This document shows positions 53,917 to 54,724 of a stretch of DNA of 64,000 bases, in pieces; the stretch's first letter is position 1; each line of letters opens with the position of its first letter. The notes below the pieces were generated by a model. It saw only the letters and a program-made list of their open reading frames with translations. It was not told where the DNA came from and did not search any database. This stretch comes from Longimicrobiales bacterium (GTDB taxonomy: Bacteria > Gemmatimonadota > Gemmatimonadetes > Longimicrobiales > Gaopeijiaceae). The position numbers and the translations under genes are program-made. The stretch is from NCBI GenBank assembly GCA_965198065.1, contig CBDAON010000004.1, forward strand, positions 1,696,001-1,760,000. Reading direction: 5' to 3'.

Positions 53917-54544
53917 GTTTCCCCCGCACACGCGGGGATGGACCAGCGTTTCCTATCTCCTACGATTATTCCAGTATGTTTCCCCCGCACACGCGGGGAT
54001 GGACCAGCGTTTCCTATCTCCTACGATTATTCCAGTATGTTTCCCCCGCACACGCGGGGATGGACCGAAGATGAGTAGTCCAAGAAAAAGAAGTATTACG
54101 TTTCCCCCGCACACGCGGGGATGGACCCTCGGACCTGCACTTCTGGGGTGTCCATGACGAGTTTCCCCCGCACACGCGGGGATGGACCCTCGGACCTGCA
54201 CTTCTGGGGTGTCCATGACGAGTTTCCCCCGCACACGCGGGGATGGACCGTTCAAGGACGTGCAGATGACGATGAGCGCCCGGTTTCCCCCGCACACGCG
54301 GGGATGGACCGTTGCCGGCCGAGGTGAGGAACTCCGTGCGCGCGTTTCCCCCGCACACGCGGGGATGGACCAGCCGCCGCTTAGGCCCGCCGAGCTCTGG
54401 AGCGGTTTCCCCCGCACACGCGGGGATGGACCGGTACGGCCTGCATTACTTCGACCCGCTCCAGCGTTTCCCCCGCACACGCGGGGATGGACCCATGACG
54501 CGGGCGGAGCTGGACGCCGCCGTGATGTTTCCCCCGCACACGCG
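53917..54544 (+). CRISPR. type I-E-like CRISPR array, left arm (10 full repeats plus a half repeat; 10 spacers)
   Basis: repeat GTTTCCCCCGCACACGCGGGGATGGACC every 61 bp; 33-nt spacers; spacers 1=2 and 4=5. Confidence 0.97.
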
Positions 54545-54724
54545 TGTGCGGGGGAAACGTGTCAGCCTCGAAAGCCACGGTCACGTCATCGGGTCCATCC
54601 CCGCGTGTGCGGGGGAAACCATGGCCCTGGAAGTCATCAAGCGGGTGATCCTGGTCCATCCCCGCGTGTGCGGGGGAAACAGCACCTGGGGCTGACGGGC
54701 GAGCTCCCAATACGGTCCATCCCC
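54541..54724 (-). CRISPR. same-repeat CRISPR array, right arm in opposite orientation (half + 2 full + partial repeats; 3 spacers)
   Basis: GGTCCATCCCCGCGTGTGCGGGGGAAAC at 54592 and 54653; partial copy at 54714 cut by IS3. Confidence 0.95.

Follow-up and report, generated by a model that had tools for sequence, protein, structure and literature searches.

Models of CRISPR array evolution combine gain at the leader end with deletion and duplication between direct repeats, and orphan or relic arrays broken by insertion sequences (IS) are a known kind. The main text of PMC10457644 lists acquisition, deletion, duplication, insertion and loss of the trailer as recognised events in arrays, but not in-array inversion. 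The terms “inversion” and “inverted” are absent from the main text of PMC12839519, PMC12638026, PMC6617893 and PMC10457644, and our literature search, with most subscription papers outside its scope, returned no report of an array that switches strand. A related rearrangement is known from short-range template switching: in the four-point model, as outlined in PMC7954356, an inverted fragment arises via a short self-complementary overlap and leaves a perfect inverted repeat, as would be the case here.

The locus described below lies in a window of 64,000 nucleotides (C4:1696001-1760000) from the 2.87-Mb contig C4 of a host genome of 3.05 Mb (four contigs, 87.6% complete). It resembles type I-E arrays such as those of the JGI contig L031 and of G384, a genome of the same phylum, in its 28-bp repeat, GC stem-loop, 33-nt spacers, 61-bp period and tandem spacer duplications. 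In contrast to these arrays, it has no leader, cas operon or degenerate trailer and changes strand via a hybrid repeat. We regard it as a known element with a rearrangement that looks real, is rare and has apparently not been described, and it reads as a dead type I-E array bearing the scar of an inversion.

Structure, class and surroundings of the array

The features of the locus are as follows (positions are those of the window).

53547-53916, minus strand: 3′ remnant of a large surface-protein gene of the Calx-beta/Fn3/cadherin type, 0-8 nt from the first repeat and in the leader's place
53917-54526, plus strand: left arm, composed of spacers S1-S10 and ten perfect type I-E repeats of 28 bp; plus is the predicted crRNA sense
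54527-54558, no strand: palindromic hybrid repeat, positions 1-17 joined to the reverse complement of positions 1-15; putative left breakpoint of an inversion
54544-54724, minus strand: putative inverted block with three distinct spacers, two full repeats and a partial repeat at each end
54559-54591, 54620-54652 and 54681-54713, minus strand: the three right-arm spacers, all distinct
54714-54724, minus strand: repeat stub of 11 nt (repeat positions 18-28), which stops 1 base before the axis of a predicted reciprocal 24-bp palindrome
54725-55136, plus strand: right part of an IS3-family element, 412 bp, positions 876-1287 of 1287 bp, cut inside orfB
55134-55568, minus strand: MddA-like methyltransferase gene, truncated at the right end of IS3 to its N-terminal 144 aa; these match positions 3-144 of the profile NF045656 (238 positions) below cut-off, with E 2e-58

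The ten repeats of the left arm are identical and follow each other every 61 bp from position 53917, the last one starting at 54466. Beyond the hybrid, full minus-strand repeats are located at 54592-54619 and 54653-54680, and the stub is the exact reverse complement of the corresponding repeat positions. With ten plus repeats, one hybrid, two minus repeats and one stub, the array lacks the single orientation of type I-E arrays. All 12 full repeats are perfect and all 13 spacers are 33 nt long; 11 spacers are distinct, as S1 equals S2 and S4 equals S5 by tandem duplication. An earlier sequence-only reading had described the ten plus repeats, the palindrome, the continuation on the minus strand and the 33-nt spacing, all of which proved exact. 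It had also stated that the arms are not mirror copies, in agreement with spacers in mirror register being identical at only 11, 15 and 13 of 33 positions. Their sum (54372-54526 versus 54559-54713) amounts to 39 of 99 identities compared with 27-28 expected (p 0.007-0.025 over three nulls, post hoc); we treat this likeness as chance, and a model of inversion in place leaves the excess unexplained. A diverged mirror duplication is ruled out, because the repeats are identical while the spacers share 33-45%.

The repeat can form a 6-bp GC stem with a 4-nt loop, and both its length of 28 bp and the 61-bp period agree with type I-E. An identical repeat occurs in four JGI contigs. In L031, it follows cas7-cas5-cas6e-cas1e-cas2e and a leader, which bears out the type I-E class named by the sequence-only reading. 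A repeat with two mismatches is found in G384 after cas3-cas8e-cas11-cas7-cas5-cas6e-cas1, in an operon spanning cas3 to cas2. Since the identical repeat lies leader-side after cas2e in L031 and the two-mismatch repeat does likewise in G384, we assign the repeat to type I-E and take the left arm's plus strand as the crRNA sense, which places the two arms tail to tail by sequence comparison. No spacer is shared between the array and L027-L033. The first spacer base is mixed in the array, as opposed to mostly C in L030 (35 of 47).

The array was also described as an orphan with neither a cas gene nor an AT-rich leader adjoining it, and this description holds. We found no AT-rich leader or sigma-70-like promoter, and the region 53300-55300 contains no promoter- or terminator-like site. 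Within the 87.6%-complete genome, six Cas Pfam families gave no match, and cas1, cas2, cas3, cas6e, cas7 and cas8e were not found. The search for I-E cas genes elsewhere thus uncovered no operon: tblastn with 11 Cas proteins gave a single match, a cas5 remnant at C4:1504012-1504323, 246 kb from the array. This remnant accompanies a second orphan I-E array (C4:1501852-1503282) of 24 repeats with a different 29-bp sequence, whose leader side is replaced by a piece of IS1595; the cas5 remnant lies ∼750 bp upstream on the same strand. Both arrays resemble other IS-broken orphan arrays in being Cas-less, leaderless and bounded by IS fragments. CRISPR-Cas has been dismantled at least twice in this genome.

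Elsewhere in the host genome, the array repeat is absent at up to five mismatches, and it is also absent from viral contigs. With the whole array as query, blastn listed records from phages (2) and plasmids (84) at identities of 60-80%, and no full spacer match was indicated by any of them; the best self matches of the spacers reached 21-26 of 33 positions. In the RNA runs, a fraction of 0.05-0.09 of the sequence words was present. The exact repeat occurs in 0 of 460 slots for genomes of relatives. Its summed depth reaches thousands in the metagenome runs X1, X2, X13, X8 and X3, yet just four JGI contigs carry it. The source-type habitat appears to hold a large, unexplored family of I-E arrays with this repeat.

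Both flanks are broken genes or elements. On the left, the sequence is 90% identical to the gene of a 1453-aa paralog (C4:2827776-2828188) up to position 53915, and 84% and 88% identical to a second paralog and to G004, respectively, up to 53908. The 1453-aa paralog contains Calx-beta, Fn3 and cadherin domains. Neither Pfam nor NCBIfam confirmed the autotransporter fragment suspected here earlier; an autotransporter-like end is seen by eye only. The left deletion junction (53884-53916) falls within 0-8 nt of the 5′ edge of the first repeat, and this edge is the border of Cas1-Cas2 integration. The junction could stem from a simple deletion, from recombination with a self-derived spacer or from capture of a long DNA end; a self-targeting spacer model proved indistinguishable from a simple deletion.

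On the right, the suspected IS3 fragment is confirmed as the 3′ 412 bp of the element (rve_3, E 8e-30). It is 99.8% identical to other copies, of which the genome contains 12 full and 16 partial ones at ≥95% identity. No microhomology exists between the repeat stub and IS3 at this join. Another IS3 copy (C4:912290-912698) is broken at position 879, 3 bases from the array-side break at 876, and the other 14 partial copies break elsewhere; a hot spot or chance are both possible explanations.

The region around the array is a decayed integrative island. Pieces of tyrosine-integrase-like and relaxase-like reading frames were recognised by eye at 46687-49067 (integrase-like: 47893-49067), and the segment 52484-53915, comprising the end of the surface-protein gene and an AlpA gene (52680-52907, PF05930), is 89% identical to C4:2826761-2828188. 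An intact-looking IS1595-family transposase is encoded at 56812-57801. Further downstream, at 61547-64000, a gene for a secreted-looking protein of 448 aa is tandemly duplicated, with several more copies of 87-97% identity elsewhere in C4.

Origin of the palindromic repeat

The palindrome at 54527-54558 is perfect over 32 bp and not extendable. The 3.05-Mb genome has 31 perfect palindromes of at least 20 bp, of which this one is the longest, followed by ones of 30 and 28 bp. Because this palindrome is built from two repeat halves in register, it is not a product of chance. Its core, CGCG at repeat positions 15-18, is the only self-complementary 4-mer of the repeat, and for k = 14 to 18, the whole palindrome can be written as positions 1-k followed by the reverse complement of positions 1-(32-k), so that the crossover may lie anywhere in CGCG. 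At this point, the two repeat orientations share just 4 nt; overlaps of 6 nt in the stem existed as well.

The sequence-only reading had proposed an inversion or a fusion within a repeat. This proposal is supported, and the 11-nt stub, which that reading had passed over, helps to choose between its two parts. If the segment 54544-54724 is reversed on paper, 13 perfect plus repeats at 61-bp spacing result, with 15 nt of a fourteenth after them; the spacing breaks at each of the four neighbouring start points that we tested. The stub thereby completes the left repeat of the palindrome, a register that an unrelated truncation would reach in about 5 of 61 cases (an arithmetic estimate). This fit favours, short of proof, an inversion in place over the fusion of two arrays. 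We therefore think that a single exchange event within two repeats probably turned the last three spacers around in place, and that a deletion into an IS3 copy likely followed.

In such a scenario, the ancestor would have been a normal array with 14 or more repeats, all in one direction, and a break or a replication fork template switch would have occurred at the CGCG of repeats 11 and 14. As CGCG is identical on both strands, the 181-bp piece could have been rejoined backwards. The left product would be the 32-bp palindrome of two 5′ halves, and the right product a 24-bp palindrome of two 3′ halves. In the same or a later event, the sequence from 1 base before this second axis to the middle of IS3 would have been lost. 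Since the array ends 1 base before the axis of the 24-bp palindrome, the IS3 deletion may have begun at the second palindrome or may have been part of the same event. A separate deletion would have put the end of the surface-protein gene in place of the leader side.

Two further observations agree with an inversion in place. Perfect repeats throughout are expected inside one array; arrays with the same repeat in L030, L032 and L033 end in degenerate units, and neither arm of the present array contains any. The decay of the genome at other sites, namely the IS1595-cut leaderless I-E array, the cas5 remnant and the 16 partial IS3 copies, was likewise counted in its support. The choice of a 4-nt overlap where 6 nt were available counts against it, as a pure microhomology model does not predict this choice. 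Among relatives, the repeat at one or two mismatches was found in 0 of 60 genomes and in the wider phylum in 1 of 400 (G384, with different spacers); no un-inverted ancestor was found, and the original spacer order is thus deduced rather than seen.

As to the type of exchange, we lean towards break and rejoin over template switch, because the ends meet base-exactly and the 4-nt core was used instead of the 6-nt stem overlaps. Compared with the four-point model as outlined in PMC7954356, the far end here meets the first switch point base for base, which is more like a cut and flip, the 4-nt core rather than a 6-nt stem was used, and the return junction is lost.

A rather unlikely alternative is that a deletion crossing at CGCG joined two separate, convergent arrays that shared this repeat, the leader side of the right array being lost later to the IS3 deletion. 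Such a fusion requires no reciprocal product, and deletion is a common fate of DNA in this IS-rich genome. It leaves to chance, at about 5 in 61, the exact register in which the right stub completes the palindrome's left repeat, and neither arm has the degenerate trailer unit. Moreover, the oppositely oriented array pairs that we saw (G464:C41 and G489:C34) are divergent, and a deletion there would create a hybrid of two 3′ halves, unlike the present one.

The junction in sequencing reads

An assembly or library artefact could also produce a strand switch, either through a chimeric template formed during library amplification or ligation, or through a consensus error placing an inverted array piece and half an IS3 element. 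Of the 24 sequencing runs listed, five were examined, all in the form of short-word contigs. Run X1, which may be the source sample and was assembled with a different assembler, contains a 92-nt contig covering 54466-54557 with no mismatch and with a depth of 2.5, like that of neighbouring spacers. This contig begins with repeat 10, includes S10 and ends 15 nt beyond the axis of the palindrome, which shows that the centre of the palindrome is present in reads and was not created by the assembler of the genome; with fewer than 31 letters beyond the axis, the contig is not a bridge by the 31-letter rule. At the left end of the array, a 110-nt contig of X13, another sample, covers the junction with the surface-protein gene (53835-53944) with no mismatch and 28 letters on the repeat side; X13 also contains S1/S2.

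The right-arm spacers and the join between stub and IS3 are uncovered in X1, X2, X13 and X8, which leaves the right arm without support outside the assembly. This is evidence neither way, because the strain has a depth of 2-4, contigs drop alternative paths, and S9 and S10 are missing as well from X2 of the same sample. S10 and the first right-arm spacer would form a bubble of two equally long paths that both enter one palindrome node. The contigs of the five runs do not settle the spacer order across repeats. A joint in X1 that connects 54546 to 54098 reads as a variant repeat of another array and not as part of this locus.

We consider an artefact improbable. It is in keeping with the facts that no contig among the five runs bridges 54400-54800 and that the right join falls in a repeat of dozens of copies. 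But it would require two chimeric joins 181 bp apart, the low identity of the spacers in mirror register (11, 15 and 13 of 33) speaks against a fold-back of one arm, and the 2.87-Mb length of the contig makes repeat-spanning reads likely. The misjoin at a palindromic k-mer considered in the sequence-only reading is unlikely for the same locus: the overlap is only 4 nt at the left join and absent at the right one, too little for a graph or overlap misjoin, and the palindrome centre is present in the contig of a separately assembled run.

Function, occurrence and significance

The array is most likely an inert relic rather than a two-strand immune device, with no predicted function, because no leader, promoter-like site or Cas6e/Cascade genes were found. 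The arms had been expected to be transcribed convergently. Their convergent polarity stands; transcription gains no support, given that no leader, promoter-like site or Cas6e/Cascade operon was found. In RNA folding, the hybrid adopts a 14-bp stem of -26.3 kcal/mol compared with -13.4 kcal/mol for the normal repeat. A plus-strand transcript would thus be predicted to fold the hybrid into this stem, without the normal 3′ handle for crRNA processing, and on a transcript running from left to right, the last three spacers would be antisense and silent. Rfam gave no match at E 0.1. The suggestion of a cruciform-prone centre is doubtful: cruciform extrusion starts with melting of the centre, according to PMC7999016, and the centre is GC-rich here. 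A short, GC-centred palindrome would be a poor candidate for extrusion.

It is highly improbable that the array is a functional invertible or two-strand device, in which repeats are cut at CG-CG by a recombinase or nuclease, bluntly or with a 2-nt stagger, and blocks of spacers are thereby turned on and off, or in which both arms are expressed and serve Cas proteins in trans. In its favour, the breakpoint geometry fits a symmetric cut at CGCG, the repeats have stayed perfect, completeness of the genome is 87.6%, and the abundance of the repeat in source-type metagenomes (summed depth in thousands) implies a community with Cas proteins of this class. Against it, the reciprocal site is destroyed and the right site is cut after 11 nt, so that the block cannot flip back in the same way, neither side has a leader or promoter-like site, Cas6e, Cas7, Cas8e, Cas3, Cas1 and Cas2 were not found, and a strand switch occurs in 0 of 401 Streptomyces genomes, though 27 of 101 carry matching normal arrays. 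Two intact inverted sites flanking a segment, as in a site-specific switch, are not present. CGCG is not avoided in C4 (observed/expected 1.0), and there is therefore no hint of a resident CGCG cutter.

Junctions of this kind are rare. The exact 32-mer gave no match in GTDB-wide genome contigs and JGI metagenomes, and a generalised 22-nt core gave five GTDB-wide matches, none of them in an array. A loose hybrid motif was present in 86 of the 401 Streptomyces genomes; the 30 loci examined comprised 29 lone hairpins and one same-strand degenerate array. A strict three-repeat switch motif, which recovers the window itself, was found in none of the 401; for comparison, 27 of 101 of these genomes contain 538 normal units. 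These motif searches covered the 5′/5′ junction type within this repeat family, to which our statement on rarity refers.

The locus is probably a relic left by genome decay, not a functioning device, and the event is likely to be both rare and without function here. Its biological weight would be modest unless such inversions are recurrent and enzyme-driven. In a far-reaching and distinctly improbable reading, I-E repeats with a self-complementary core would be built-in inversion sites, at which a symmetric CG-CG cut flips spacer blocks and silences them without deletion, and the locus would be a frozen intermediate of a general, overlooked route of switching off and dismantling arrays. An inversion in place predicts the spacer order to be found in a sister strain. 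The finding has consequences for programs that find arrays or predict their orientation on the assumption of a single strand: beyond gain, deletion and duplication, a spacer block would also be invertible through the repeat's own symmetry, as this locus illustrates base-exactly.
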